Assembly: GCA_000091205.1 (NCBI GenBank)
Contig: AP006490.2
Strand: one strand, 5' to 3'
Source of the DNA: Cyanidioschyzon merolae
Lineage: Eukaryota
DNA: 64,000 bases
Both the position numbers and the translations under genes were made by a program. Under the pieces are notes generated by a model. That model was given only the letters and a program-made list of their open reading frames with translations. It did no database searches and was not told the origin of the DNA. Of the stretch, positions 1-63,119 are shown in pieces (positions within the stretch are counted from its first letter, which is position 1; every line of letters begins with the position of its first letter).

Positions 1-1184
1 ATGCCCCCAGAGGCTCCCTTCTCTCCTGTTTGCATGAACAAGGGTCTTGGAATCGGACTTGCAACATCGCAGCAGCGCCGTCTCAGTCGAAAGTGTATCG
101 TATATTCGCAGGCAAGGAAGCGTACACGGATCGAAATTGCTCGTCTTGTTTTCCAGCCGGGATTCCGCTTTCGTTGCCTAATTCACTTTTGACAGCGTTG
201 AGATCCACAATCCTCAATCGAATGGGAAAGCGCTCGCTTCCACGTGCAGCCGACTGAGAACTCGTCGAGCGGGTCGACCAGAGCAAGCCGGTGATCTTCG
301 GGTATGGCACCTCAGCCGGCATCGGACGACGGCATGGAAGCAAGGCTTCTGTGCCCGTCACCAGCATGTATCGATCGATGAATCATGCGTTTATGCGTCA
401 TAGGGCAACCACTGGAATCGGAGGCGGTGGCATCGATACATGGGAGTACCGAACCACAGTAACGTGTCACCACGACGAAGAGCACACTCAGGCCGTATAC
501 AACGTAGACGATGACAAAAATTGGATCATCGATCGCGAAAACCTTCTCTCTATCAAGTGCGTAGACAACAGCAGGAAGTCGCGAAATACCAACCTTTCAC
601 GCTGCTATCAAAACCCTTCGACTACTGACAACGGGGCTAGATGGACAGGAGTGACCGACGCACTGAAAGCCGGAGATAAGAGAGACAATAAGGAACGAGT
701 CGTAGAAAAAAGTCTGCGAAAGCTAGTCGTGATGACGATCGAAAGAGACCCAGATTTCAGAACGGTCGCTTGAGTTTGGTGACTGTGTAGACCCCCGTGC
801 CATGCGCTGCACGCAGGGGAAGGACGGCCCTGGACCGGCACCAGCGCGATCGGTGGAGCCAACCTGTGTCTGCAAAATCCCTAAAGGTTCAGTTTCAGTA
901 GCAACGGCGCGTCGCCAGCGGGCACCATGCCGTGCACGATGCCGTCGACCGCATCAGGCTTCTTCATAGAAACTGTAACTAACTGGAATAAAAGGACAGC
1001 TTGCGGCGGGCTCGTCGCCAGCCGCCGTCGCACTACGACGGTCTCTCCCTGACCCAGAAACGTCTCTGGACTTGCGCGTTACCGACTGGGTCGACGTCGA
1101 AACGAACTCGTTTCCGTTGCTAGTACTGACCTCCACATACGCGCATCGTAACGCATCGAACAACACACATACGTTCCGAAAAAA

Positions 1185-2537
1185 ATGGGTAAGGAAAAGA
1201 CGCACGTTTCCGTGGTGGTTATCGGTCACGTGGACTCGGGCAAGTCGACTACGACGGGTCACTTGATCTACAAGTGCGGCGGCATCGACAAGCGAACGAT
1301 CGAAAAGTTTGAGAAAGAGGCGAACGAAATGGGAAAAGGTTCGTTCAAGTACGCGTGGGTGCTGGATAAACTAAAGGCGGAACGGGAGCGAGGGATCACG
1401 ATCGATATCGCGCTGTGGAAGTTCGAGACGGACAAGTACTACTTCACGATCATCGACGCTCCTGGGCATCGTGACTTTATCAAGAACATGATCACGGGTA
1501 CGTCTCAGGCGGACCTTGCGATCTTGGTGGTTGCGTCTCCTCCTGGAGAGTTTGAGGCTGGTATCTCGTCGAACGGACAAACTCGTGAACACGCGCTGCT
1601 CGCGTACACGCTCGGTGTGAAGCAGATGATTGTGGCGGTGAACAAGATGGACGATAAGAACGTGAACTGGTCTCAGTCGCGTTATGATGAAATCACCAAA
1701 GAGTTGAACTTGTATTTGAAGAAGGTTGGCTACAACCCGGACAAGGTTCCCAAGGTACCAATCTCGGGCTGGACTGGCGACAACCTGTTCGAGCGAGTGC
1801 CATCGGACCATCCGCTTGCCAAGTGGTACAAGGGACCAGCCCTGCTGGAGGCGCTTGATGCCATCGAGCCTCCGAAGCGCCCCACCGAGAAGCCACTGCG
1901 TCTGCCCCTGCAGGATGTGTACAAGATCGGCGGTATTGGCACGGTGCCCGTCGGTCGGGTAGAGACGGGTATCCTGCGGCCAGGCATGGTGGTTACCTTC
2001 GCGCCCACTGGTCTGACGACTGAAGTCAAGTCAGTTGAAATGCATCACGAGTCACTCCCCGAGGCTGGGCCAGGTGACAACGTTGGCTTCAACGTCAAGA
2101 ACGTGAGTGTCAAGGAACTGAAGCGCGGCTTTGTATGCGGAGACAGCAAGAACGACCCACCCAAGGCCGCGGAGGACTTCAAGGCACAGGTCATCATTCT
2201 GAATCATCCGGGCGAGATCCGGGCCGGGTACGCGCCCGTTGTTGATTGCCATACTGCCCATATCGCCTGTCGGTTTGCGGAGCTCTTAGAGAAAATCGAT
2301 CGCCGCACCGGCAAGAAGATCGAAGAGAACCCTGAAAAGGTGAAAGCCGGCGATGCCTGCATGGTTCGAATGATTCCGTCCAAACCCATGTGTGTGGAAA
2401 CGTTTAGCGAGTATCCACCACTAGGGCGGTTTGCCGTTCGTGATATGCGCCAGACGGTGGCCGTAGGCGTCATCAAGGAGGTCAACAAGAAAGAGGCGGA
2501 AGGCAAAGTAACGAAAGCAGCAGCGAAGAAGGCATGA
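1185..2537 (+). CDS. EF1A: Translation elongation factor 1-alpha (intronless, 450 aa)
   Basis: ORF translation carries the canonical G1-G4 GTPase motifs ([18 protein letters not shown]) and full-length EF-1alpha collinearity to the C-terminal [10 protein letters not shown]; ATG start, TGA stop. Confidence 0.95.
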
Positions 2538-2942
2538 TCATGATACATAAAGGAATCTGAGAAGTGTATGCACAATGTGCCCATGTCCTCAGCACATGTA
2601 AGTAGTAGTAGTAGTAGTACGCCAGGAGAAATACGGAAATGTTCGCACCCTACTCCCGTTTCAGCTTACAACGGACCGAGTTCACGAACGGTGTCATACG
2701 CGCTAACGTCTGGGCATCCTGCTACGGGGCATCAACAGGGGCCTTTATTTGCTGTTTCTGCGTCGGCCCCGTGTCGTATTCCTCTCATCTCCTGCCTTTG
2801 AACGTGCTGGTCGCTCCGTTTTCTCCGGCTCTGTTGGGCACAGTCGAGGGCGGCTAATGGCAGCGTTCAGGTTCCGATATCGCCGCTTTCGGCTGTTGTC
2901 GACGCAGTTCACCTAGAGGCAGGCGTAGCGATCTACGCCTGG

Positions 2943-3503
2943 GTGCTCAGGTTCGCCATCTTTGTATACAGTCTAGGTGTGCTCTTCGCAACGGTAACAC
3001 TCGACACTAGTCAGATCATCCCATTTGTGTCCACTGCAACGCATCCGCCTCTATACGCCATCTGGTGGCGCTTGACGGCTTGCTTCGTCGCTCTGTACTT
3101 GCCCGTAAGGTATACAGAAGGCACCACTCGATATCCTGACGGTTTCCGCGCCCGATACGCTATGCCACGATCAAAGGTTTTCGCTGGGCGATGCATTCGG
3201 CGAGTCCGCAGTTGGCTGCACGCGCAAGAGCATGCTGTACCATTCGATGGCGGATTTGTGGAACTTGATTCTGTTGATGAGGAAGCAGGTACGGGAAGGA
3301 GTATCCGGGCTGGAGAACACGTCGAGACATTTCAATTCGTCTATGCTTCTTTTTTCGCCTCTGTGGCGCACGCTCTACTTGAAGCGATCGATGCAATGAC
3401 GCAAATCGAATTCCAGAACCCTTTTCCATGCAACCAGGAGAGTCGGGGGCCCTTCCGTCGACGTCCACAAAGAGAGATGCCTTTGTCTTTCCAACCGAAT
3501 TGA
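2943..3503 (+). CDS. Hypothetical protein (186 aa), no recognisable domain
   Basis: Isolated ORF in the 3-kb gap between EF1A and the E2 gene; only ORF length supports it. Confidence 0.15.
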   Translation: MLRFAIFVYSLGVLFATVTLDTSQIIPFVSTATHPPLYAIWWRLTACFVALYLPVRYTEGTTRYPDGFRARYAMPRSKVFAGRCIRRVRSWLHAQEHAVPFDGGFVELDSVDEEAGTGRSIRAGEHVETFQFVYASFFASVAHALLEAIDAMTQIEFQNPFPCNQESRGPFRRRPQREMPLSFQPN

Positions 3504-5439
3504 TTACTAGACATGACAAGTTCAGTGAGCACACATGACGAACTTGTGAACAGCTCGCCGAGGGACGGAGTCGAATCATTTTCGTCGTGAAAACCGGCGG
3601 CGCTGATGGCTGCCCCTATTCGTTGGCTTGAAAACTAGAGTCCGAAATCAAGATACATGCTTGATTCGAGCTTGCTGCACGTCACGAAAGGACAAGTACG
3701 GAGGATTGTACGTATGCATTGGATGGTGATATCTGGTATTTTGCGCACCCTTGATCAAGATCTTTGCGAATCATCTCGACTCCAATGACGTAACGGAGTC
3801 CAGCAGCAACTCGTCGAATGAATCACTCCGGGAAATCCACCAAGCATCTTAACAATGCCTATGAAACCGTAACCCCATGTTGCTGTCCAGCGACTATCGA
3901 GACTGTCCATCGAAACCAATCTCGGAATAAAACGTCGTGCGGGGACAGGGCGTGCGCTTCAGGTTTCCATTGTAAGCTGACACGTGTTCCGGCATTTGTA
4001 TCCGAAACCAGGCAGCAGGGCGTTGACGTGTACCAAGCACCTCAGTTGCAAACCCCGAACCTGTGCAGCTACTGCCCATGATGACCATGATCCCCGCACC
4101 CACTTAAATATTGCGTTCTGACTCTGGTATCTCGACGCCACTGGCGCGCTCGTCCAGGTCGAATGGCTATCAGGTCGCTACGGAACCACAAGTCGTTACC
4201 GCGCTTTGGTCATGCCTATATCAGGCCGCACGGAGATAACGCGGCATCTCCTCAGCCGACACCGCTCCAGCGCCCCCCGTCGCAGTGCATTTGTAAACGC
4301 TGGAGCACGGGTGTCTGCATACGCGTCGCGGTTACCCATTGATACCAACCGAGCGTGCACTACCGCGTAGAATATTCGGAATCGGAACGCCACATTTACA
4401 ACAAGTCCTTCACCACAAGCCGTACCGCAAGTATCTAGAATCTCTAATGAGCAAAAGGGTATCTGATTGGGCCCTAGGACGACTCAGGATGACGCTGGGT
4501 GTACGAACCTGCCTTGCAGAGAGCCGCACCTGCCTCCGTGGCATCGTTGTGCTGTGACTACTGCTCGTGCAGTGCGCGATCGCACCGAAGAGGCCCACAC
4601 GATAGCTGCAGCCTCCATATATCCACGTGCTTCTGTGCATATCTCCTTGCACAGTGCAGCGTCAATTTGCAGGTGTGCATAGCGAGCAATTAGCGGAGAG
4701 TGTCTGTGCAGTGCAGCACGCCAAACGACTTGCCAACGAGTGATCGAGCGCTTCACGATCGGGATAGAGTGTGTTGAGGTGTCGTGCGTTGCTCGCGATG
4801 GGTATCGTGCTTCATCGAGCTGCGCAACGCGCACTGGCATACACATCGCATGGTTTGGTATTGGGCAGCATGCGACACATCCCCTGCATACGTTTGGCGC
4901 TAGTTTCTTCTGCAATACACGTTCGCTGCATGGCGGATATGCTTCGCAAAGCGGTGGCGGCGTCCAAAGATCGTTTGCGGTGCCGTTCCACCGCCAGCTC
5001 CCTTGGCGAAACCTTCTGGCGCGTTTGACGATATCGCAGCCGAAACAGTATCCGCAGCAGTCACGGTGCTCGTATCGGTACTGTTGATGCCTCCAGATCA
5101 GCTGCAATGATGACACCAGGCCGATGCGCGACTGTGTTGACTGCGGCGGCACTGGAGCAGGTCAAGCGACAGCGGACGCGGGGAGCCTCACGGCGACGCG
5201 TGCTCGTCGTCATTGCCACACGCGAAGGTCCATGATTTCACTCGTTGCCGCTCAGCTTCACTGCAACAGACCTGCCCGCTACGCGCTGTCTCTCGGTCGA
5301 CTGAATGCTGGGACGAATTCCCGGGCCTCTGCGTTCACCGTACAGTCCATGTCGGGCTTTGCATGCCGCGCTGTCGCTGTGTACAGCGAGCTCGTGCATA
5401 TGAGCAGTGCGTTCGCACTGCGCGGATGTCGGGAAAGCA

Positions 5440-6171
5440 TCAGGAATTACCGTTGCCAACCAGGCGTCGTCCGCTGAAGCTGAACGCCTGAGCACCATCA
5501 TCCAGCGCATTGCGTTCCTCGTCGTCACTGTCACTCAGCGACTCGAGTTCACTTGCACTACCATTGGATGCCGCCCTGGTCGTATCGTGCGCCGAATCAG
5601 CGGCAGCGTTCGCAGTCGCACCCTTAGATGAAGAGGCCAGGGAGGATGTGCTCGGTTGGGCACTCCGGCTCTGCTGATGGCGACGCAGCGCCTGCGTTCT
5701 TGACGCCACTGGATAGTCCTCCTCGCGTGCATATCGATTCACGAATTCTCTCACTTTCTGTTGGAAACGCTGTGGCTCACGAAGATGCAGTGCCGCCGCT
5801 TCGCCGTTCAGAGGGTCCTGGCTGTTCGGATACGTGAGCAGCTGCGGTAGGAAAACCTCGAAAACGTTCAAAAGATCGAAGAGCGGCGACCAGGTCTGGT
5901 TAATCACATCCAAGCACACAGACCCACTCATCTGGTCGATGTTCGGATGATAGATAGCGTTCACGAAGCCGATACTTGGAGACTTGTATGGGTAGGCCTC
6001 GGGGAGCTCCACGTGTACCTTCCAGACACCGCCTTCGTAGGGCGTGTCCTTGGGACCCCGAAACTTCACGTAAAACTCCGCGTTGGAGTCCTCGTTCGCC
6101 ATTTCCACCTCGTAGTCCGCCATGACCAACTTCATTATGTCCATTTCGCGACGTCTTCCCGGAGACGACAT
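5440..6171 (-). CDS. UBE2H: Ubiquitin-conjugating enzyme E2, UBE2H-like, with Ser/acidic C-terminal tail
   Basis: UBC fold motifs: [38 protein letters not shown] plus active-site Cys in [13 protein letters not shown]. Start placed at the internal ATG ([11 protein letters not shown]), which matches the UBE2H N-terminus; the 28 upstream codons of the ORF are treated as 5' flank. Confidence 0.85.
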
Positions 6172-6251
6172 GCTCGTGACAACGCAGAAAGTACTGGGCT
6201 TTCGCAAGTCCGTGCGCACTGGCCAACCTTTTTTTAGTTCTCCAAGCAGTT

Positions 6252-8011
6252 TCACCTATGCACCCTGAAAATAAACGTCTTTCTAAGGAAAAACGCTGCC
6301 ACCGGCGGGCGCAATACAGTCTTGGCGAGAAACCCGCCCTGGACAAGACTTCTCCAACTGACGTGCAGACGCCTGCCAGCCTTTCTGGAACGGGCACCCA
6401 CTACTGCTTCCAATTCTTTCTCATATAGTTCCATTTTGAGAGGCTGTCCGACAAAATGCTCTCTTGTCTACGCTGAAGGTCTGTTCTCCATCACCGCACA
6501 TCGCCTTCAATGGATAGCGGTATTTACGTCCCGGTTCTCAAACTCCATACGTTTCTTGTTATTGATCGTACTTACTGATGCAAGTTGTCCACGAACTTTT
6601 GCCATCCTTTCCATTTGCTCTTCCGTTAGCTGTTCGTACTTTTTTATATCTTCAGGGCTCCGCTCGCACTTTTTCATCTCAACTCTCTGGCGTGTACAAC
6701 CCAGTTCGTGGTTTGTATACGATGCCCGGAACTCATCGATGGGTATCGTAACGAAACGCCTTGCGCACTCTCTGAATGTTCTTGTCGTTGGAGCTGGCCT
6801 AGTCCCTTTTTGGGTCTTCCAGCGCCCTGCTCGGTACACTACTAAAAGCCTCTGACTGTCCTCCTCCTTCAAGGCGCTCAACCCATTGAAAAAGTTTGCG
6901 AACGCCCGCTGCATCCCCCAGTACAATTTCATAATGAAAAGAGAACACCGGGGCTTTGTATATTCTTTCCACAGCGCCTCCCAATGGGCAACACGAACTT
7001 CCATGAATTTCCGAAAAGCTTCCTAGGCCGCTCCGCGGCTCGTCACCTCGCTCAAAGCTTCCAGGTGATCATTCATTCCTGCATTCTACGTCTCGATTTT
7101 CTTGCTTGCATTCATGATTCCCGATTCTCGATGGTATCTCGCTCTCGAGAATCTCAACAGACGCATGTCTTTCTGAGGCAAGTTACCGTCAATGCCATCT
7201 TCCGCACGCTTGGGTACTGCGATGGTTACGATATTCGTGTTCCCGGGGTCCGCGCCAACGACAAGGTCGTTATCCTGGGGATTATACATTTCAGGGCCCA
7301 CCTCCATCTTATCTTCATGCTTCGTCACGGGCGAAGCGCAAGGCGCGATGGGACGATCCACCTTCAACCTCCGATACTGTACACACATGGCTACTCCATC
7401 GGTTTCGATCATCCCAGCGAATACCTTTTATTTGCTCACTTTGGGACGTTTGAAATCGAAGATATTCTTCCAGTACGTCTCACGGTTTTCACCGGGGAAC
7501 TCTGTCTTCCTTACATCGAACTCCGGACAGATCTCCCTCATGATGCCTTGAAGGACTCTGGAGCCGATGGTCACACAGTGTGACTCGATGTTGTTCAACG
7601 GAACGACGTTAAATTGCTTCCCCATTAGGAAAGCCTTTCGTATCTCCGACGCTTCATTTTTCTCCTCACTCAGCTTCATCTATGCCTCGCGTTCCAGTCC
7701 TCGGTCCAGGAACACGAAATAGCGCAGGATGAGGCGATCGTATCTTTTCTTATCTTTTTTTTCATCTCTGATAACTTTTCTGTTCGGTTCGCCAGCCCCA
7801 GTACCGCACGATGCTCTTGTATAACCCAACGGATTACAGGAGCTTCATTCTTTCTCCTGCGTGATGTCTTCTTGTCGAAGAATTCGATCTCCTGTTCATT
7901 CTGGCAATCCTTCGTGATGCCATTGATAATCGCCCATATTCCTTTGCGAGCGATGCCCGGGTAGAGTGCATAGACGGAGCGTTTCATGAAGCGTTCGAGG
8001 TTCATCGTCAA
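6252..8011 (-). mobile_element. TnpB/Fanzor-like (IS200/IS605 OrfB-type RuvC nuclease) element, copy 1, near full length but degraded
   Basis: Collinear minus-strand ORF pieces 7676-8011, 7428-7679, 7086-7412, 6507-7004 and 6252-6434; the last four share one frame separated by in-frame stops, and the first is joined by a -1 shift at an ATGA overlap. Motifs: RuvC-I-like [16 protein letters not shown], TnpB zinc-finger lead-in VTIPIDEFRASYTNHELGC...KKC, and RuvC-III-like ENRDVNTAIH. A paralogous fragment lies at 10.7-11.3 kb. Confidence 0.7.
6252..8011 (-). pseudogene. Fanzor/TnpB-like nuclease ORF interrupted by at least 3 in-frame stops and 1 frameshift (about 570 codons total)
   Basis: A TAA sits between 7428-7679 and 7086-7412 with open frame on both sides. 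A TAG sits between 7086-7412 and 6507-7004. I could not construct a frame-preserving GT..AG intron across either gap. Confidence 0.55.
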
Positions 8012-8533
8012 ATGGTTCTTCAGGTCCGTATGGTACTTGATCGTCCCGTAGGTTTAAAGATCCGAATCACCCCTGTATCGTGTACCCTCAGGGCGGTACT
8101 CGGCGTGATTCTCGTGGAGGGCATGAACCCGCTCATTTCCCCTCCGCGTTTCCCCTGTGCCAAGCATCAGGCGACAAATCAAGGTCCTGTCGAAAACGCT
8201 TTCGAAATCTCGACTGGTTTGATGTCCGTCACTGCTGCTGTGCCAGGGAAACTTCGTGCGCCTGATCGCACGCTGGAATGTGTTGTCGACGGGGCGCACT
8301 TCGGTGCAATGGATGGAACGTTGCGGAGCGGAACGCTGACAACATCTCCGTTCGGGCGCACAGGAACGACGCGATGCTTGGCAATGACCGCTGTCTGTTT
8401 CGACTTATCGGTCTGCGTAAGCGGATGTAACCAAACGGCACCGAAAATGATACAGGAGCGAGCGCACGATCCGCTCGCGCCCTGCGGGGGTCCGTTGCTC
8501 CCCTGCGATGCCCTCTAGCGATGCCCGTTGTCT

Positions 8534-10609
8534 TTACGCTGCATTCCCCGATTCTCTTTTCGCGAAAAGCTCGTACTCAACCTCTAGACTATCGTTTGTG
8601 GGATAGTCGGCTACAACCCGCTCGTACAAGTAGAGCGCATTCTCGTTCGTGACACTCTCGTCGATGTAGGCGCGTGCCTCGCGCAGCAGACGTGCGCTAT
8701 CTCGAGACAGACCCCACAGATGCAGCCGAATACCATAGCTCCTATACTGACGGGCTAGGGAGTCTAGCGCCTCTAGCGCTGTCGCGTCCCAGATGCGGCT
8801 ACCAGAGAAGTCGATGATCACGTGCTCATGGCCTTCGGCACGATCCCGTGCTGGGTCGAACAGACGACTGAAGCGCTCCGCCGTGCCAAAGAACAGCGGA
8901 CCGTCAATCCGGTATCCCCGCCATCCGCGCGTTTGCTCGTCCTCCGAAATAAAGCTCTGGGCGGTAATGCGTCGCGACGCTTTATAGGCAAAGACCAGCG
9001 CCGAGAATACCACACCAAACAGGACCGCCAGGGCGACGTTGCGCGTTGCTACAGTCATCAGGGCAACGCTCACAATGGTCAGCGAATCAGCGAGAGGTAT
9101 GGCACGAAACAAGCGCAGCGATGCCCATTCGAATGAGCCCAGCGCCACCAGCACCATAAGGCTTGCAATGGCTGGGACGGGAATCCGAATCATCAGTCCG
9201 CTCGGATTTCTCGCCAACACGAGAAGACACAGCGCCGCAGTCAGTCCAGAGAGACGCCCGCGTCCCCCTGATTTCGTGTTCAGAAGCGACTGGCCCAGGA
9301 GGCCGCAGCCGCCCACGCCACCGAATAAGCCCGCGGCGATATTCCCTGCCCCAAGCGCTAGACACTCCCGACGCGTGCTACCCCGCGATTCCGTGACTTC
9401 GTCTACCAAAGTCATGGTTAAAAGAGATTCCAAAAGACCGATGAATGCGAGACCAAGCGCGGTGCTCAGAATGGCCATCCATGCCAGCGGTGTTGACGGC
9501 AGGGCTGCCCAGGATACGCCAATGGCCCCTGACTGTGCCAGCGTGTCGCGCAAAAAGTCGCCAAGCCGCCGCACAGGCGCTTGCGTCACCTCCGCATAAA
9601 TGGATGCCACGAGGATGCCCGCTAGTGGGCTTGGGAGCCAACGCAACAGCTCAGCGAGGCGGTGCTGCCACCGATGGGTACTATCGGGGCGCCGGCGCTC
9701 TAGTCGCTGAATGATCAAGGGCCATACATGGGCGACTCCAGCGGCGAGCGCTGCGACGATCAACGCTGCACGCAACATGTTACCCTGGAGCCAGGGTGCG
9801 CCCGGGCTCAGCCCGGTTCCCGCTGGAAGCTGAAACGCATAGACCTGACTTGTCGCCGTCAAGATGGCGATGCCGCTGATGAATCCCAGAAAGGTAGGGT
9901 ACGATATCAGCCGCACAAACTTTCCCAAACGATAGATCCCGAAGAAAAGCTGGAGTATACCGCTGAGCACCACGGCGGCAGCGACCGCTGCTGCGCCGTA
10001 CTGTTGATAGAGAGGCGCTTGCAGAATAATGAGCGCTGCAGATGTTCCCGAGATCATGCCAGGGCGTCCTCCCAGTGCGGCAGTTATCGCACACAGGAGA
10101 CCAGTCGAGACGATTCCAGCGAGCGGCGGCACGCCCGTGGCCAACGCGCAAGACGCCGCCGCAGGCAGCAGCGCCATCGCCACCGTAATGCCCGCCAGCA
10201 CTTCCTCTACCGTCGAGCGTAGCGGATAGCGCGCTGTGCGTTCGTCCAAAATCCGACGCTCTCCAACGAAATAGCGCCCGATATCCTCACGTGGTGCAAC
10301 GAGCGGGAAGAGCCCTCGCTCACCAGGCTTGGGACGGTGCCTCGCTTCGGCGTCGGGGGTACCCCCTGGCGCCGAACCTGTCCCCCGTACGCGAGCAAGT
10401 GCTCCGCAGCGCGTACGCCGCCTCGCGCGGAACCCAGGCACCACCAGCGAGTTGCACTGGCTCCGGTTCCGTACGACGAAACGTACGCCGCTACCGCTGA
10501 AGGTATTCGTTACTATGAAACCGCCTAAAGCATTCTCAACGCCCATGTTCCGACGAAAGTACCTTGCGTGTCCAGTGAACAGGCAGTGCACAACAAGGCG
10601 CTCGTGCAT
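8534..10609 (-). CDS. SulP-family sulfate/anion permease with C-terminal STAS domain
   Basis: Multi-helix membrane core (GIVSTGLLCAITAALGGRPGMISGTSAALIIL; FLGFISGIAILTATSQ) followed by a STAS-like tail (HVIIDFSGSRIWDATALEALDSLARQYRSYGIRLHLWGL). The ORF extends upstream to 10717 on a TTG-type call; start set at the internal ATG (MHERL...), and 10546 (MGVENALGG) is an alternative. Confidence 0.85.
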   Translation of the reverse strand: MHERLVVHCLFTGHARYFRRNMGVENALGGFIVTNTFSGSGVRFVVRNRSQCNSLVVPGFRARRRTRCGALARVRGTGSAPGGTPDAEARHRPKPGERGLFPLVAPREDIGRYFVGERRILDERTARYPLRSTVEEVLAGITVAMALLPAAASCALATGVPPLAGIVSTGLLCAITAALGGRPGMISGTSAALIILQAPLYQQYGAAAVAAAVVLSGILQLFFGIYRLGKFVRLISYPTFLGFISGIAILTATSQVYAFQLPAGTGLSPGAPWLQGNMLRAALIVAALAAGVAHVWPLIIQRLERRRPDSTHRWQHRLAELLRWLPSPLAGILVASIYAEVTQAPVRRLGDFLRDTLAQSGAIGVSWAALPSTPLAWMAILSTALGLAFIGLLESLLTMTLVDEVTESRGSTRRECLALGAGNIAAGLFGGVGGCGLLGQSLLNTKSGGRGRLSGLTAALCLLVLARNPSGLMIRIPVPAIASLMVLVALGSFEWASLRLFRAIPLADSLTIVSVALMTVATRNVALAVLFGVVFSALVFAYKASRRITAQSFISEDEQTRGWRGYRIDGPLFFGTAERFSRLFDPARDRAEGHEHVIIDFSGSRIWDATALEALDSLARQYRSYGIRLHLWGLSRDSARLLREARAYIDESVTNENALYLYERVVADYPTNDSLEVEYELFAKRESGNAA

Positions 10610-10674
10610 TGCCGATGCTTCCGACGCGAGCGCTGAGATCCGTACATGCAATCTCGGATGGCGGGCAGTTTGAT

Positions 10675-11330
10675 CTCCGCATGAATCTATAATGTGGGGA
10701 GTATCGGGCATTCGCAATTTTTTTTTCAGTGAGTTGAGTGCCTTGAAGGAGGATGAAAGTCAAAGGCTCGTAGTAGCGTACGAAGCAAGGCGCTGGACGA
10801 CCCAACAAGGGTGTACACCAGATCCCACGACGAGAACGTATACGGAGTGCGCAAGGCGTTTTGTTATAATACCGGTAGATGGATTTCGAGCATTGTATAC
10901 ACACCATGAACTGGGCTGTACACTTCAGAGGGTCGAGATGGAAAAGTGCCAGCGGGGACCTGAGGATATAAAAAAAGTACGGACCGCTGACAGAAGAGCA
11001 AATGGAAAGGATAGCGAAAGTTCGAGGATTGCTTGCGTTAGTAAGTACAATCAACGGCAAGAAACGTATGGAGTTTGTGAACCGAGACTTTAACGCCGCA
11101 ATCAATATAAGGAAATGTGCGGTGAGAGAGGAAAGACCTCTCGGGTCGACGAGAGAGAATTTTGGAGGAAAACCGCTCAAAGTTAAACTATATGAGAAAA
11201 AGTTTGAAGCAGTAGTAGGTGGCCGGTCCAAAAAGACGGGCAGGCTTCTGCACATCAGTCGGAGACATTTCTTCTAGGGCGGCCCGGTCGCCACTACTGT
11301 ACACCGCTGGCGTCGTTCGCCTCCTGAACA
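10675..11330 (+). mobile_element. TnpB/Fanzor-like element, copy 2: 3' fragment only, inverted relative to copy 1
   Basis: ORFs 10692-11093 and 11002-11277 align with the C-terminal ~190 aa of copy 1 (FFFSELSALKEDESQRLVVAYEARRW...ARRFVIIPVDGFRALYTHHELGC... / MEFVNRDFNAAINIRKCAV) at roughly 75% identity. DNA homology begins near 10675 and continues about 50 bp past the stop. The frameshift between the two ORFs is a +1 in an A7 run near 10968. Confidence 0.7.
10692..11277 (+). pseudogene. C-terminal fragment of Fanzor/TnpB-like nuclease (zinc-finger lead-in plus RuvC-III motif NRDFNAAINI), frameshifted
   Basis: Same evidence as the copy 2 element; the fragment lacks the RuvC-I region. Confidence 0.6.
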
Positions 11331-11375
11331 GCGTTCGGTGTCGGCGATGGCGATGGCGATGGCTTTCCAGGCTCC

Positions 11376-12950
11376 CTAAAACAATTTGTTGAACACCTGC
11401 AAACCTAATTCGATAGCGATGAGCGCTACAATTGCTCTTTCAACGCGATGGGTGGTAGAGGTCGCCAGTTCACTATTCAGCAGCGCTAAAGAATCCTGTA
11501 CAATATCCATGCGCTTATCCAAAAGTCGTGCTCGCTTCTGTAGATCAACAACCTGAACACTCTGATTATAAACAGTTTCACTGCTGGGGTACTCCCAGAA
11601 AATCTCCGGGGTATCCAGGATATCTGAGAGCAGTGCGACCGAGTATTTGGCGGTGAGAAGCTGACCGATGCGTCGACGAAGATCGTCTTGGGCCACTGTG
11701 CGGAAGCGCCCGTATTTCGCGAGCTCTTCCGGCAGGCGTCGCGTCTCTTCCACCAGTCGATCAATGCTCAGCTCAAATACGAGCAATTTAACGCTCTGTG
11801 CGAGCCCAAAAGAGATCGCGAGCATACTCAAAGCGTCCGCATAATCATGCAGAAAAATACGGTCGTTGCGGAACTGAGTCAGCGAGTTGGGTATGCGCTC
11901 TTGATTTCGAGACAGCGGCGCCTGCAGCGCTGGACGAAGCTTCGCACGACCAAGGGCAGACGGCATCGGCAGTGCATGCTCAGCGGTCGCCAATCGATTC
12001 GGGGAGGCTGGCGCTGCGCTCGCCGCAAGTGCGGCACCCCCAGAGGGCGAAGTTCCATCCGGTGCATCGCTTAGAGTGTCGGTGCTGGACTGTGCGCTGT
12101 CCATGAGGTATGAAAATTCAAACTCATGGTCGAACTCCTCGAAGGTGACATTGGAATTGTAGCCGGGTTGTATGTCGCATCGACGTGCCAAGCGCAGCAA
12201 CTCCCGCCGCGTCTCCTCGTCCACATCCCAGAACACTGCTGCGCCTGACTCGAAGAAAAACACATGACCATCGGCATGTGGCATTCGGACCTGCTCCTGA
12301 CGAGTCGCAGGCCGCACCCGACAATGCAGTACGTCCCGGGAAAGGGTACTCGCATCCACGGTGGTGACCAGTGGGACCGAGCGAAGCAGGTCGCGCAGTT
12401 CTTCCAAGCGATACCCCGAAGCGAGGCAGTAAGCAGCACATATGCGTACTGCCTCGCCAGACGACCCGGAACGGGCCTTTGTTTTCCGCTGTTTATGAAC
12501 CCGCAGTGTGCTAGGCGAGCTTGGCGGTGGAGGCGGCGGCGGCGGTGGTGCAGCGGGCGTCGAGATGCCACCAACATCGACAACACTCGCCGTCGCCAGC
12601 GCTGCAACCTGTAAAGCAGTGCCGTGCGACTGCATCGCTGCAGTGCACGGCGTGTCGGCAGGCACATGGACACGCAACCACCACTGCGTGTGTTTTCTAA
12701 GGTAACTGGACAGCGTCCGCTTCTGAAGCGAATCCGTCCATGTTCGCCGGAATCCATTGGACGGGTAACCTAGATCTGAAGAGAAGCGAGCTTGCAGCTG
12801 CAAGATCCAGTTAATTCCCCCCTGTCGTCTGCACGCTTCACCAGAGCTGGTGGTCGAACACGTTCCAGCCCAGCGCCCGAGCCGCTGGTGCCGCAGTATC
12901 GCGCAGCAGCGCCCCGCAGTTCGTACAGCGCCTATTAATGCAGAGTTCAT
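11376..12950 (-). CDS. RMND1: RMND1/Sif2-family protein (DUF155, mitochondrial translation/meiosis-associated)
   Basis: DUF155 signature HVFFFESGAAVFWDVDEETRRELLRLA, and the family-typical C-terminal amphipathic/TM segment (RVERAIVALIAIELGLQVFNKLF). Confidence 0.7.
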   Translation of the reverse strand: MNSALIGAVRTAGRCCAILRHQRLGRWAGTCSTTSSGEACRRQGGINWILQLQARFSSDLGYPSNGFRRTWTDSLQKRTLSSYLRKHTQWWLRVHVPADTPCTAAMQSHGTALQVAALATASVVDVGGISTPAAPPPPPPPPPSSPSTLRVHKQRKTKARSGSSGEAVRICAAYCLASGYRLEELRDLLRSVPLVTTVDASTLSRDVLHCRVRPATRQEQVRMPHADGHVFFFESGAAVFWDVDEETRRELLRLARRCDIQPGYNSNVTFEEFDHEFEFSYLMDSAQSSTDTLSDAPDGTSPSGGAALAASAAPASPNRLATAEHALPMPSALGRAKLRPALQAPLSRNQERIPNSLTQFRNDRIFLHDYADALSMLAISFGLAQSVKLLVFELSIDRLVEETRRLPEELAKYGRFRTVAQDDLRRRIGQLLTAKYSVALLSDILDTPEIFWEYPSSETVYNQSVQVVDLQKRARLLDKRMDIVQDSLALLNSELATSTTHRVERAIVALIAIELGLQVFNKLF

Positions 12951-14473: not shown

Positions 14474-16948
14474 CTAATCCACGAGCGCATAGATATCACC
14501 GCGCTGCGTGCCGTAAACGATACCCTGCACAAGCTGGGGGTAATTCGCAGAATACATCGGCAGAAACAGGGCGCAGTTAATCCCATCCACTTCCTCGAAA
14601 GATCTCCAGTCAAGAGCAGTCGAGGCATCTCCGGGTGCAATGCCAGCATGTGGCCTCGCTGCCGGGATCGATCGGAGGCAGTGCATGGACCCCGTGCGCA
14701 GGTCCGCTTCAAACAAGTCCAAAATAGGTCTCATTTCAGCTGCTTCCAGCGTTTCCGAGTGTGTCATACTCTCCCGATAACTGTAACCCGCTAGAAAATA
14801 GATTCGATCCCTGTCGGGCGATACCTTCCCGAACCCAGTATTCGGGGATGGTACAAACCGTAGATTCGTCAACGCCCTCGTATGACATGCATCCAGGGGC
14901 ATACGAGCCCGTTCTCGAAGCTCAACTGAAGAAACCGCACCATCGATACTGGTTAAAAAACACGAATCAAGGACAGGAGATTTTCGCGCTTGTCCCGATA
15001 CCGCAGAAACAGGTAGGATCTCATAGATAACGATGTGCGCGACAAAGGTTGAGGCACCACCACTGGGAACACGTTCCTGGGCAGCACGTACCCAAACGTT
15101 CCGCGACTCCAAGCCTGCTGGGGCATGTGCGGTATCAGGTACTGGGGAGCGCACTGCGCTTCGAGGTACGCCGGCTCCATGCGAGCGAGGCGCGCTGCGC
15201 TCGGTGCCACTGTGGAGGCTGCTCGCGTGGCTATCGCTCGGACAGTGGGGCGGTGGTCGGCGTAGCTGTGACTGCAGGATGCAGACGAGCAGATACCGAC
15301 CATCCGTGGATACGCTGATACCCGCCTCGTTGTATGCGACGACCTGAGGTATTTTGCCGATCAAGACTCCAGGGCACAATGTATTGCACACGGGCGTGCT
15401 GCGGCTTCTCTGGAAGCCGTAGCCGCTGCCACCAACGTCACCATTACTACTACTGTTGGGAGCGCTGTCGATATATCTCAGCGGCTCTTCTCTCAGCTGG
15501 TACAGCTGAATATCAAGGGTGAATGGAGCGGCCGCCACACGGAAAAGTTCCGCTTCCTGTTCCGTGGAGAGCACCGGTGAACGCGTCCCAACAAGCAGGA
15601 TGGAGGCCCCTGCGAGTGCATTCACCAAATGAATTGGTACGCCTAGGTAATAGCAGGCAGAGCGCTGCTGCGAGTCCTCTACCAGGGTTTCGTCGGTGGA
15701 TTCAGCGGGATGCCGCTCAGGCCGCCCCGCAGTTACTCGCTGCATGTCCATAGGGTGCTGCGCGCTGAGGTCAGCTTCATCTGCGTTTTCGTTCGAACGT
15801 GCATTCTGAATCTGCCGGCTAGCGTGGCGTGCTCGCCGAGTTCCCACGATCCCTGCCACTGAACTGGACCCAACGGCTTGCCGTTGTCGCTCTCGGTCCG
15901 GAGGCCAGGGAAAGCGTGAAGCGCTCCCCAGGGAAGTCTGGAAGCTTGCAGCGTCACCAGCGAGCGCCCCTGAACGACCAGCGCCGATCGTATCGAAAGA
16001 TGCAGCGGTGTCGAGCGTGCTCGCTGTGGCAACGCTCGAGGCGCGCGTATCTCCCCGAGTCACTCGATCCTCCAGAGCAGTGCGCGTATGGATATGAGCT
16101 TCACGACCCGCACTGTAAGTCGACGCTCCCACGAGCACTCTGTTCGTATTGGTCGTTTGCCCAGCAGCTGCAGACCGACGCCCTCGATCTCCGTACAAAG
16201 CATGACGCGGAGAGGGCTCTCGTGTGGCCGCAGTACCCGCTCCAATCATCGGTCTTGTCATCGTTCGAAGAAGTGTTCGCGACCAGAGCGTCCGCCGCCA
16301 TTGCCAGAAAAAGAGCGACCGTCGCGCAGCAATGATGACGACTTCCCCAGACGGATCAAAAACCACACAACTGATGCTGGATGGTCCATATTCCGGGAAG
16401 AAGGCAAAGTTCTCCGGGTGCTGTTCACTTACAGTGTATCGCGCTACACATTGATCACGATACCAGACGTAACAGTGACCTCCGAGGCAACCGCTCACCA
16501 TGAGGTCGGAGTCACGCGGGTGAAAATGCACACTCCACGGAGTACGCGGATGACCGTACAATTCAGCGCTTAATTCGAGTGAGAACGAGCAGCCAGTATC
16601 CTGGCACAGTTCACGTACTTGCGAGGATTCCGGGCGCGCATTCTCCGTTTCTCCTCGACGTATTCGATAGGTCCGCACTACATGGTCACCATGCGTCGAT
16701 GCGAGCCTGGTTCCATCGGCAGAAAGACTCAGCGCGATGGTGCTACGAACGTGCTCAGCTCCGTGGCGGTTCGTCGCGATTCGAATGCGGCGCTGTAATC
16801 GCTTTTGCAAGAGAAAGCGCTCCCAGTTCAGCGCGTGTTCCCGGGTATCAGGAGCAGCTTTTGATGGAGGTGTGAGGTGCAGCTCATTGCAGACCCTCTT
16901 TGCGGGTCGGAATTCCACTTCTCGGTGTTCTGTCCAGGTCGTCAACAT
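14474..16948 (-). CDS. WD40-repeat protein (824 aa) with long low-complexity middle region; family uncertain (AMBRA1/DCAF-like?)
   Basis: WD-like units (LSLSADGTRLASTHGDHVVRTYRI; HFHPRDSDLMVSGCLGGHCYVWY; VVFDPSGEVVIIAARRSLFFWQW) at the N-terminus and a beta-propeller-like C-terminus; long single ORF. Confidence 0.5.
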   Translation of the reverse strand: MLTTWTEHREVEFRPAKRVCNELHLTPPSKAAPDTREHALNWERFLLQKRLQRRIRIATNRHGAEHVRSTIALSLSADGTRLASTHGDHVVRTYRIRRGETENARPESSQVRELCQDTGCSFSLELSAELYGHPRTPWSVHFHPRDSDLMVSGCLGGHCYVWYRDQCVARYTVSEQHPENFAFFPEYGPSSISCVVFDPSGEVVIIAARRSLFFWQWRRTLWSRTLLRTMTRPMIGAGTAATREPSPRHALYGDRGRRSAAAGQTTNTNRVLVGASTYSAGREAHIHTRTALEDRVTRGDTRASSVATASTLDTAASFDTIGAGRSGALAGDAASFQTSLGSASRFPWPPDRERQRQAVGSSSVAGIVGTRRARHASRQIQNARSNENADEADLSAQHPMDMQRVTAGRPERHPAESTDETLVEDSQQRSACYYLGVPIHLVNALAGASILLVGTRSPVLSTEQEAELFRVAAAPFTLDIQLYQLREEPLRYIDSAPNSSSNGDVGGSGYGFQRSRSTPVCNTLCPGVLIGKIPQVVAYNEAGISVSTDGRYLLVCILQSQLRRPPPHCPSDSHASSLHSGTERSAPRSHGAGVPRSAVRSPVPDTAHAPAGLESRNVWVRAAQERVPSGGASTFVAHIVIYEILPVSAVSGQARKSPVLDSCFLTSIDGAVSSVELRERARMPLDACHTRALTNLRFVPSPNTGFGKVSPDRDRIYFLAGYSYRESMTHSETLEAAEMRPILDLFEADLRTGSMHCLRSIPAARPHAGIAPGDASTALDWRSFEEVDGINCALFLPMYSANYPQLVQGIVYGTQRGDIYALVD

Positions 16949-60975: not shown

Positions 60976-63119
60976 GTTGAACGCCTCGTGATGCGTTCCA
61001 CGTGCTCGTTGTATGCTCAGGCTACCGGCGTAGAGAAAGGGAGCGCTGATGGGAGGAGTTCTGTCTCGTGTCGATAGAAGCAGTTGACGAGCTGGCTGTG
61101 GAGCAGGCATCGAGATGGTAGCGAACCTGGAAGAGATGCCGTCGCAGCGACAGCGACCGTTACTTCAGATCCTCCAAGCTCATGGTGTTAGGTGCCGGCC
61201 TCGGAGCTACGCAAGTCGTATCCCGAGGACGGTTCAAATGCGACTACTGCCCTGCACCTTGCGCTATATCGTGCTCCCGAACAGAGCCGCTCAATACAAA
61301 TCAGAGTTTCTCCCCGCACAGAAGCGCCCTCATATCCTCTGGCGTATATTCGATATGGTTTCCATACGTAGGATTGAGAATCATTATATCACTGTAAACA
61401 GTTTTGTGGTGTATGGGTGCCTCATTGCCCTGCGACTGATCTCAACGATTAGGTGCGTAGTATTGCCACAATGTCGCGAAAAGGATTGGCGGAGCTCGCT
61501 TACGGTACCGCGTTCATATGGGGAAAATCCAAATAAAATCTCAGACACAACGGTGACCGACGGAATATCAGTTCGCACGCACTTGGTTGCACATAGGCCA
61601 AAGTGGACCAACGAGACTCATTTTGAACTGTGCAACGTAGACGAAGAGCAAGACTCGGCGTTGCGCGAGGATCCTGGGTAGAACGGCGTCCTGGTCGTCG
61701 CCGTGCCTCTCTTTTTAATCCAGACTACACAGCCCAATACCCGACGGCAAACCAGTTGGAGATGCTCGGCTTTTCCAGACCTATGTATCAAGAGCGTCGA
61801 GCATGATTGACACCAGCAGGTATCACAAGAGAGGGAATCACGGCATCGTGACCCTGTTATACGCTCTGAGCACCGTATCGTACTGAAGTGTATACTTAGT
61901 ACACTCGATCCAGAGAGAACGAGAGCATCTATGTGGCACGTGCGGACGCACCTCGGCAGACGTGTTTGAAACCGCTCTGGGATCGCCAACGATTCGTTTG
62001 TACAAAGGCCAGAAGTCCGCTTTGTCAGCTTGTTCAATGCCTTGAGAAAGGAAATGCGCGATAAAACTCGTCATTCGGATGTAGTCTACCGCGCTGGACG
62101 TGTGGGCATGCGCACGAGTAGCACGCCATTCCCCTCTGACGAGAGCGTATAACGAGTGCAGGAATCGATACTGTGCGATTACCCCTGATGCCTTCGAGAC
62201 GACATACAACCATTACGAGCACAAACACAGGACGAAACAGGTCGAGCACAAGATCGTGAAACGGTTATGGGTGCATGACCTGGTGTACTGGAAGCTGACC
62301 GAACCTCAGATATTTGAGCAATCGAAGGTGAGAGGCTCGCTGTGGAGCGATTCCACCTGCAACAGAACGTGCAAGCACTTGCTGTTGCGCGACTTGATCG
62401 CTTCGCTCAAAATCAGGAAATATCTCAAGTCCTTCCACAATTTCTCCCGGCTTTTTGTCGAGCAAGCTTTCGATAAAATCACTGAATACTCGGCATGCGC
62501 TTGGTGCTCAAGTGCTGCACGCTTCCGGTGAAAATAAAACAGGTGGCCAGGAGAATCAACAATGGATTCCCCCCTGGAGCAAGGCATTAATTGGGTACAT
62601 TCAACGAGCCAGAAAAGCTGGAGCGCTGTTCATGTATCCGTCGGGGACGATTCTCGTGGGCACTGTTGAACCGTCCTGGTAACCTCCAAGTCTACCATAC
62701 GAGTTCAAGAAACATGATCAGGATCATTCCATTCCATCCACACGTTCAACATCGACAAGCTAGCTTGGGATGTTCAGTTTACAATCTAGAAGAGCGTAAA
62801 CTATCCTGGATATAAAACTAGAACCTGACAACACCACACAAACAATGCTTTATGGAGTGCGCTTTTGCCAGATCTTGTCGCTTTGGAAGACTAGTCGCCG
62901 ATGTCCATTTCCGTTCGCAGCGCGTCAAGCAAAGAGCAGCAGACGTTTTCGGTACGGCGTTACGGAACGTTTCTTTGCTGGTCAGCTGGGCGGCAGACAT
63001 CAATCACCCTGTGACTGCAAATAGGCAGAGTTGCAGCGGGGAAGCACACGCGCTTCCACCTACAGGAGACCACAGACGGGACTCCCCTGAGGCTGTACGA
63101 GCCTTTGTACGAGTTCCGC

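Follow-up and report, generated by a model that had tools for sequence, protein, structure and literature searches.

Two nuclease relics flanking a transporter gene

We analyzed a 64,000-nucleotide stretch of Cyanidioschyzon merolae DNA (contig AP006490.2; hereafter the window), which is intron-poor eukaryotic DNA with 55% G+C and carries two decayed copies of a Fanzor1-type nuclease gene, one on each side of a SulP transporter gene. Each copy is followed by a non-coding tail that is found throughout a family of CMe-1A-type elements, and this tail is most likely, with moderate confidence and by analogy with characterized systems, the omega-RNA (guide RNA) scaffold gene of the family.

Copy 1 lies on the minus strand. 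Six-frame translation, together with tblastn and homolog searches (E-values down to 1e-220), identified its body at 6339-8232 as a 5’-truncated CMe-1A-like Fanzor1 pseudogene, and its homology to full elements runs from 8232 to 6260. Over approximately 1.9 kb it contains five in-frame stops (7430, 7088, 7025, 6509 and 6470) against one frame change near 7680, which shows that the gene decayed mainly by substitutions and not by insertions or deletions. The codon CAG (6341-6339) occupies the position of the family stop. Copy 2, on the plus strand at 10674-11277, is a 3’ fragment of approximately 600 bp from the same gene; it retains the RuvC-III motif NRDFNAAINI, has a frameshift in the A-run at 10970-10976 and ends with the family stop codon TAG at 11275-11277. 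The two copies are 78% identical over 621 aligned positions (6932-6315 on the minus strand and 10681-11301 on the plus strand).

Along 7075-12625 the window is 99-100% identical to an orthologous contig (L044) from a metagenome, but the identity falls to about 80% at 6275-7075, and synteny ends at 6275. The drop indicates that the 3’ third of copy 1 derives from another Fanzor copy. Copy 1 is a chimera that arose by exchange between elements (ectopic recombination or gene conversion), and the breakpoint of the rearrangement falls inside the element. A 75-79 bp unit encoding an acidic module of 25 residues (window 7251-7329; locus L001, 4540-4618; locus L002, 4426-4651) occurs singly in the window and is repeated two to five times in tandem in other copies (proteins P0001, P0004 and P0006).

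Both copies are decayed pseudogene relics, each with a damaged hairpin in its tail, and it is therefore unlikely that a working guide RNA is made at either locus. Neither is likely to be active, unless an intact Fanzor from another part of the genome makes use of them in trans.

The encoded protein is of the Fanzor1 type

The nuclease is a Fanzor1-type protein. Both motifs that mark Fanzor1/TnpB-type nucleases were found, namely a GxDPG-like RuvC-I aspartate motif (GADPGNTNI) and the RuvC-III motif, which reads NRDFNAAINI in copy 2 and NRDVNTAIH in copy 1; the pattern given by Bao and Jurka is D...[TS][TS]xx-ZnF...RD, with the RD (NRDxNAAxNI) close to the C-terminus. The RuvC motifs are also present in the homologs P0001-P0026, P0076, P0078 and P0353. 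Between RuvC-II and RuvC-III, where a C4 zinc finger would be expected (OrfB_Zn_ribbon/Cas12f1-like TNB, PF07282), the family has only HHxxxC...C. The copy 1 translation had no match in Pfam, and Pfam matches stayed under the cut-off, with PF07282 falling below it for the distant homolog P0078 (E = 0.0046, 17.5 bits) and for P0001 (E = 0.23); a sequence-profile search of the PDB returned no match. The only PDB folds that matched an AlphaFold2 model of the intact homolog P0353 with E < 0.01 were the Fanzor proteins of Guillardia theta (GtFz1, 9cer_P; E = 8.8e-5, probability 0.98) and Spizellomyces (SpuFz1, 9cey_P; E = 1.9e-3, probability 0.99), although the TM-scores of these matches were low (0.19-0.28) and the model itself has a predicted local distance difference test (pLDDT) score of 54.

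A distant intact homolog, P0076 (662 aa, 33% identity), is encoded at 412-3541 of locus L084, directly downstream of a DDE_3 (Tc1/mariner-type) transposase gene, an association previously reported for other Fanzor1 elements. The stop codon of P0076 lies inside a perfect 14-nt palindrome, CCGGTCTAGACCGG. The window also holds a third Fanzor-like pseudogene on the plus strand at approximately 61224-62420, which is fragmented and far more divergent (34-36% amino-acid identity) and which lacks the tail of the CMe-1A-like family.

A family of CMe-1A-type elements

Searches with the reconstructed protein recovered hundreds of relatives, all in metagenomes of JGI and ENA; the family scan of hot-spring metagenomes gave 439 encoding places, from which 80 loci were fetched. 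Homology between the elements spans approximately 3.2 kb and ends 60-90 nt past the stop of the open reading frame (ORF). The copies are about 80% identical among themselves and nearly all are broken, with locus L015 retaining a frame of 772 codons. No terminal inverted repeats (TIRs) were seen in the family, and no second ORF or transposase was seen in the full-length copies, transposase genes not having been searched for systematically. The 5’ ends are mosaic: at least three alternative, unrelated upstream modules join the common Fanzor part at one point (loci L007-L070, at approximately 3740-3960 in locus coordinates), and one of these modules is an inverted copy of a TE-N2-like left end. 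With regard to a target-adjacent motif (TAM), the left flank has only a weak motif, YTGAT, in about 12 of 19 left ends and at variable distance. Many copies are 5’-truncated, some down to solo tails (L038, 3030-3125; L073, 1234-1348). As for ORF-less ‘ghost’ elements with a tail, the 82 loci yielded only two remnants, both with extreme 5’ truncation, and the window held none.

These features match the CMe-1A Fanzor1 of C. merolae, which was described as having approximately 150 copies of about 3 kb, approximately 80% identical to their consensus, with no TIRs, target-site duplications (TSDs) that could not be determined, and a 5’ region of 635 bp in common with TE-N2_CMe (PMC3627910, Bao and Jurka 2013). 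The present family agrees in its cyanidialean red-algal host, element size, high copy number and approximately 80% identity, in lacking TIRs and TSDs, in having a 5’ module common with another element, and in being mostly degraded with rare intact ORFs; the match was made with the published description. The element is a TIR-less unit of approximately 3.2 kb, and cyanidialean red algae contain hundreds of its copies in a decayed state. The 2013 paper describes neither a 3’ tail nor any RNA for CMe-1A.

The tail forms the element’s right end

We built a profile of the tail from 34 further copies of the family, neither the two copies of the window nor their ortholog being among them. This independent profile matched the window at 11275-11350 on the plus strand (nhmmer, E = 8.5e-17) and at 6340-6262 on the minus strand (E = 1e-10), and there was no further match in the 64 kb. 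The copy 1 tail, a non-coding right end and candidate omega-RNA scaffold with a hairpin of variant B (described below), occupies 6260-6338 on the minus strand. Its counterpart in copy 2, likewise a right end and candidate scaffold, occupies 11278-11350 on the plus strand and has a hairpin of variant A with a degenerated apex. Compared with each other alone, the two tails gave z = 5.1, and none of 2000 shuffles reached the observed score.

An earlier note on this DNA had proposed that similarity between the copies continues past the copy 2 stop at 11277 and marks an omega-RNA scaffold or element end. The similarity is real, the stop is the one used by most of the family, and both tail strings quoted in the note are present in the sequence. 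A homology breakpoint exactly at the stop codon, which according to the note would have refuted the proposal, was not what we observed. The length of 40-50 bp given there is too short: the independent profile extends the tail to about 75 nt, and BLAST similarity between the window copies is cut short by their different second-hairpin variants and by a 7-nt insertion (TTGCGCC) within the 5’ arm of the second hairpin of copy 1. The interval proposed for copy 1, 6200-6330, proved partly correct in that it overlaps the tail (6338-6260), but 6200-6259 is unrelated flank. By megablast, the similarity of copy 1 to other copies ends at 6260-6265, and the flank beyond the tail resembles no other copy. 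The distance from the end of the copy 1 tail to the start codon of the neighboring UBE2H gene, expected to be 80-130 bp, measured about 89 bp.

Comparison across the family located the end of the element more precisely. Pairwise identity over the last 260 nt of the ORF is 0.79-0.82 (0.82, 0.85 and 0.72 at the first, second and third codon positions); in the tail it is 0.72-0.73 from +3 to +62, falls to 0.35 from +62 to +76 and is 0.25 beyond. Information content at 50 distinct loci parallels this drop and is about 0 beyond +76. The zone from +62 to +80 varies in length and is specific to sublineages, with ends such as ...GTTGWTGGTG and ...GTTTGTTTYCAGGGG each common to 5-6 independent loci; copy 1 carries the latter. 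In 34 of 37 copies the native segment from +60 to +80 pairs with the 5’ arm of the hairpin better than random genomic DNA does (p = 5e-9). The shared sublineage ends and this pairing place the right end approximately 72-80 nt past the stop. The tail runs from the nuclease stop to the right end of the element, and at the 50 distinct loci the conserved scaffold is followed directly by a locus-specific variable flank, both being properties looked for in an omega-RNA gene. That a CMe-1A-type Fanzor1 element ends on the right with this tail is, in our view, nearly certain, and the suggestion in the note that it is element-end sequence and not neutral flank is upheld by its occurrence as a conserved right end at about 50 distinct loci.

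By position, the would-be guide of copy 1 is the flank AUAGGUGAAACUGCUUGGAG at 6240-6259 on the minus strand, within the 5’ flank of UBE2H, and that of copy 2 is the flank at 11351-11370 on the plus strand. A (GGCGAT)n microsatellite at 11343-11363 sits exactly at the right-end boundary of copy 2 and overlaps its would-be guide; the ortholog on L044 has one substitution in it.

Predicted structure of the tail

The family consensus is predicted to fold into two stem-loops. Stem-loop 1 includes the stop codon (UAG-GGCGGG-UUU-CUCGCC-A-CUA) and is followed by a short linker and stem-loop 2, a long G·U-rich hairpin with the form ACACCGCYGGCG...apex...CGUUGKUGGUGU. The apex exists in two variants, A (UUCGA-CUU-UCGAA), found in copy 2, and B (UUUUUC-UUUU-GAAAGA), found in copy 1; read directly from the sequences, they differ by three double changes that preserve the pairs. 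In copy 1 (minus strand), stem-loop 1 is predicted at 6324-6338 (GGCGGG UUU CUCGCC) and the inner hairpin of stem-loop 2 at 6274-6297 (GCGUUUUUCC UUAG GAAAGACGUU), with outer pairs between 6313-6307 and 6265-6259. In copy 2 (plus strand), stem-loop 1 with the stop codon is predicted at 11275-11296 and stem-loop 2 at 11302-11349.

The consensus folds are strand-specific. The sense strand of consensus A folds at -33.8 kcal/mol (z = -4.0; antisense z = -1.9) and that of consensus B at -40.8 kcal/mol (z = -6.2; antisense z = -2.0), and in neither case did any of 200 shuffles fold as well. The copy 1 tail folds at -31.9 kcal/mol in the sense orientation (z = -2.86; antisense z = -0.67), and the copy 2 tail, with its degraded apex, at -31.2 kcal/mol (antisense z = -0.32). 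Among independent copies, 34 of 37 are more stable in the sense than in the antisense strand. The second hairpin contains 133 G·U pairs versus 10 A·C mismatches; since the spectrum of substitutions differs little between the strands (C>T 0.078 versus G>A 0.063), mutation bias does not explain the asymmetry, which indicates that the folded strand is the sense strand. In the inner hairpin, 87% of cells are paired for variant A and 90% for variant B (15 copies), compared with 25-63% when the partner is slid out of register. A long-range pairing between CAGUAGU in the ORF (about -75) and ACUACUG in the tail (+17) was considered and dropped, variant copies showing no compensation.

The tail is family-wide, non-coding, element-ending and strand-specific in its fold at the level of the consensus. 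Several results weigh against reading it as an omega-RNA scaffold. RNAalifold predicted no pairs on a MAFFT alignment of 37 copies, in which the two hairpin variants are out of register, and Rfam gave no match to the tail. The pairs of stem-loop 1 are conserved across the family without covariation, 76.4% of cells being paired compared with 76.3% in shuffles. Within a hairpin variant, cognate arms had no advantage in fit over non-cognate ones (p about 0.9); the value of the same test across variants (p = 0.006) comes from the switch between A and B, possibly a single event. The copy 2 tail folds no better than its shuffles (z = -1.18), and an ORF control segment also has a sense-strand folding bias, though a smaller one (33 of 43 copies). 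The AlphaFold2 model behind the structural matches of the protein is of low confidence. Finally, the tail shows no extra conservation, its identity among copies (72-73%) equaling that of third codon positions (72%). The inference in the earlier note that retention in two diverged copies implies constraint therefore fails, and retention is explained by descent inside a decaying element. Because the copies are dead, most of what distinguishes them is neutral decay, which says little about selection. The tails of the distant intact homologs at L083 and L084, each a single copy, have no sequence similarity to the present tail.

Taken together, the proposal that the tail is an omega-RNA scaffold holds in part. 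The position, size and two-stem-loop sense fold agree by analogy with published Fanzor1 omega RNAs (PMC10432273, PMC11423790); on the other side, covariation is limited to one switch of hairpin variant, and the window copies are pseudogenes.

Alternative explanations for the tail

The strongest competing explanation, which we consider unlikely but a serious contender, is that the tail acts only as DNA, as a terminal hairpin or recognition sequence for a transposase yet to be recognized, similar to the single-stranded hairpin ends of IS200/IS605 or Helitron2 elements, and has no role as a guide RNA. Elements of that kind have a hairpin near each end and a Y1/HUH or Rep-helicase transposase. The position of the tail is exactly at the element end, a long imperfect palindrome lies within it, the family is described as lacking TIRs and TSDs (PMC3627910), within-variant covariation is absent, and one palindrome could be replaced by another without any selection on RNA. 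However, about one fifth of the pairs in the helix are G·U and the antisense strand does not fold; as DNA, a hairpin so rich in G·T pairs would have little stability. The left-end consensus shows a weak likeness, in direct orientation, to the hairpin of variant B, but this similarity is marginal, with 83 of 2000 shuffles scoring equally (p about 0.04). Nor was a transposase gene seen in the element, in an analysis that made no systematic search for such genes. A role of the hairpin in DNA is in any case compatible with an omega RNA. Apparent left-end matches to the hairpin in L032, L038 and L073 proved on inspection to have no relation to it and were set aside.

Less probable, in our view, is an ordinary 3’ untranslated region of the Fanzor mRNA, carrying signals for transcript end, stability or translation termination and having no guide function. 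Such a region would begin at the stop codon, as the tail does with the stop in stem-loop 1, and a sense-specific fold would be expected of any mRNA element; a U/G-rich stretch after the hairpin also fits. Yet the conserved block stops where the similarity of the elements stops, so that the transcript would finish in unrelated host DNA, the T-runs within hairpin variant B speak against a simple terminator, and both the size and the two-stem-loop layout match the experimentally defined Fz1 omega RNAs (PMC10432273, PMC11423790). The DNA hairpin and the untranslated region are the main alternatives, and neither strictly excludes a role as RNA.

We also considered whether the tail is the C-terminal coding part of a longer ancestral ORF, as the CAG of copy 1 might suggest, with the TAG of copy 2 being a nonsense mutation. 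CAG or CAA stands at the stop position in copy 1, L001/L002 and a few others, and copy 1, L001/L002 (P0004, P0006), P0022 and L015 do read through into the tail. The read-through products, however, differ in end point and frame, and TAG, TAA or TGA is found at the position of the copy 2 stop in approximately 42 of 59 copies, all three stop codons being used. At least 10 predicted proteins terminate exactly there. In addition, the tail has the identity of third codon positions and contains indels that are not multiples of three. A stop shared across the family indicates that the tail is non-coding in the family and that the open continuation of copy 1 is secondary, and on the stop-position counts and the third-codon-like identity we rejected the coding reading as very improbable. 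Chance similarity, or a neutral flank duplicated along with the gene, was conceivable from the initial comparison of two copies alone but is refuted, with practically no probability left, by the tail lying beside the gene end at approximately 50 distinct loci with unrelated downstream flanks and by the independent profile (E = 1e-10 and 8.5e-17).

Host genes around the relics

The window encodes on its minus strand a UBE2H-type E2 gene (5443-6171; ATG at 6171-6169), the SulP/STAS transporter gene (8537-10717) and an RMND1/DUF155 gene (11379-12950). The UBE2H protein shares 80% identity with the E2 of Cyanidiococcus yangmingshanensis, one of its closest named relatives, and the Cyanidium caldarium protein is also similar, which places the host among the cyanidialean red algae. 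Together with an ORF of 824 codons at 14474-16948, these genes form a series of four long minus-strand ORFs with short spacers between 5443 and 16948, and both Fanzor relics are located within spacers of this series. An exact look-up of the UBE2H and RMND1 proteins, aimed at finding an empty insertion site, matched no record. For annotation, 6260-8232 and 10674-11350 should be described as transposon relics and not as host regulatory sequence.

Proposed function and comparison with known systems

The omega-RNA reading, which we prefer, suggests the following scheme for active source elements; transcription, protein binding and use of a guide are all proposed by analogy with SpuFz1, GtFz1, PpFz1 and TnpB. 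The nuclease mRNA would be transcribed through the stop codon into the flank, and the approximately 75 nt past the stop would encode the omega-RNA scaffold. The sense strand would fold into stem-loop 1, with the stop codon, and the long G·U-rich stem-loop 2, and the Fanzor protein would bind this scaffold. The next 15-20 nt of flanking DNA might then act as a guide that targets cleavage to versions of the site lacking the element, and cleavage of the empty site could lead to the element being retained or copied by homologous repair.

A more speculative extension, to which we give little credence, would make CMe-1A a ‘TnpB-only’ element of eukaryotes, with a hairpin at its right end that is at once omega-RNA scaffold and element end. 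The 5’-truncated copies and solo tails (copy 2, L038 and L073) would arise when RNA-guided cleavage is followed by homology-directed copying that proceeds inwards from the 3’ end and stays incomplete, and orphan tails could still provide guide RNAs in trans for the few intact nucleases, in the manner of the ‘ghost’ loci of Spizellomyces, targeting host flanks such as the region upstream of UBE2H.

Our literature search found no paper that ties a Fanzor RNA to the Cyanidiophyceae beyond the 2013 description of the transposon, and in the literature searched the family is described only as a transposon of unknown class. The present analysis offers a candidate omega-RNA scaffold of approximately 75 nt with defined boundaries for a cyanidialean Fanzor1 family. 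Cyanidioschyzon is a genetically tractable model.

One known system with a similar layout is the Fanzor1 of Spizellomyces. There, the 80 nt that separate the Fz1 stop codon from the repeat at the right end yield an RNA of 88-90 nt (PMC10432273), which consists of a 75-nt scaffold and a variable guide of 14-15 nt (PMC10432273, Saito et al. 2023). The solved Fz1 omega RNAs have in common a 7-bp stem-loop 1, followed in SpuFz1 and PpFz1 by a single stem-loop 2 and then the guide (PMC11423790, Xu et al. 2024). The present tail agrees with them in a scaffold past the stop at the right end, a length of approximately 75 nt and two stem-loops followed by variable flank, and the first stem is short in both (6 bp plus 3 here, 7 bp in the solved RNAs). 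In contrast, stem-loop 2 of the present tail is much longer and G·U-rich, and the likeness is one of layout. The elements also differ: the Tc1/mariner-type element that carries SpuFz1 has inverted repeats of 30 nt as well as TA duplications, whereas the present family has no inverted repeats. A TIR-less Fanzor1 element appears to keep the layout of the mariner-borne SpuFz1, namely stop codon, two stem-loops and guide.

The second comparison is with the TnpB omega RNAs of IS200/IS605 elements such as ISDra2. In these elements the hairpin at the right end doubles as a component of the omega RNA. The present element resembles these systems in having the candidate guide RNA encoded at the 3’ end of the nuclease gene, at the element’s right end, in its right-end hairpin and in the lack of TIRs and TSDs. 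It differs in its eukaryotic host and its Fanzor1-type protein, and in that no TnpA-like gene was seen in the element, again short of a systematic search for transposase genes. A further difference lies in the position of the scaffold, which overlaps the ORF in TnpB systems but in the present family begins at the stop codon.

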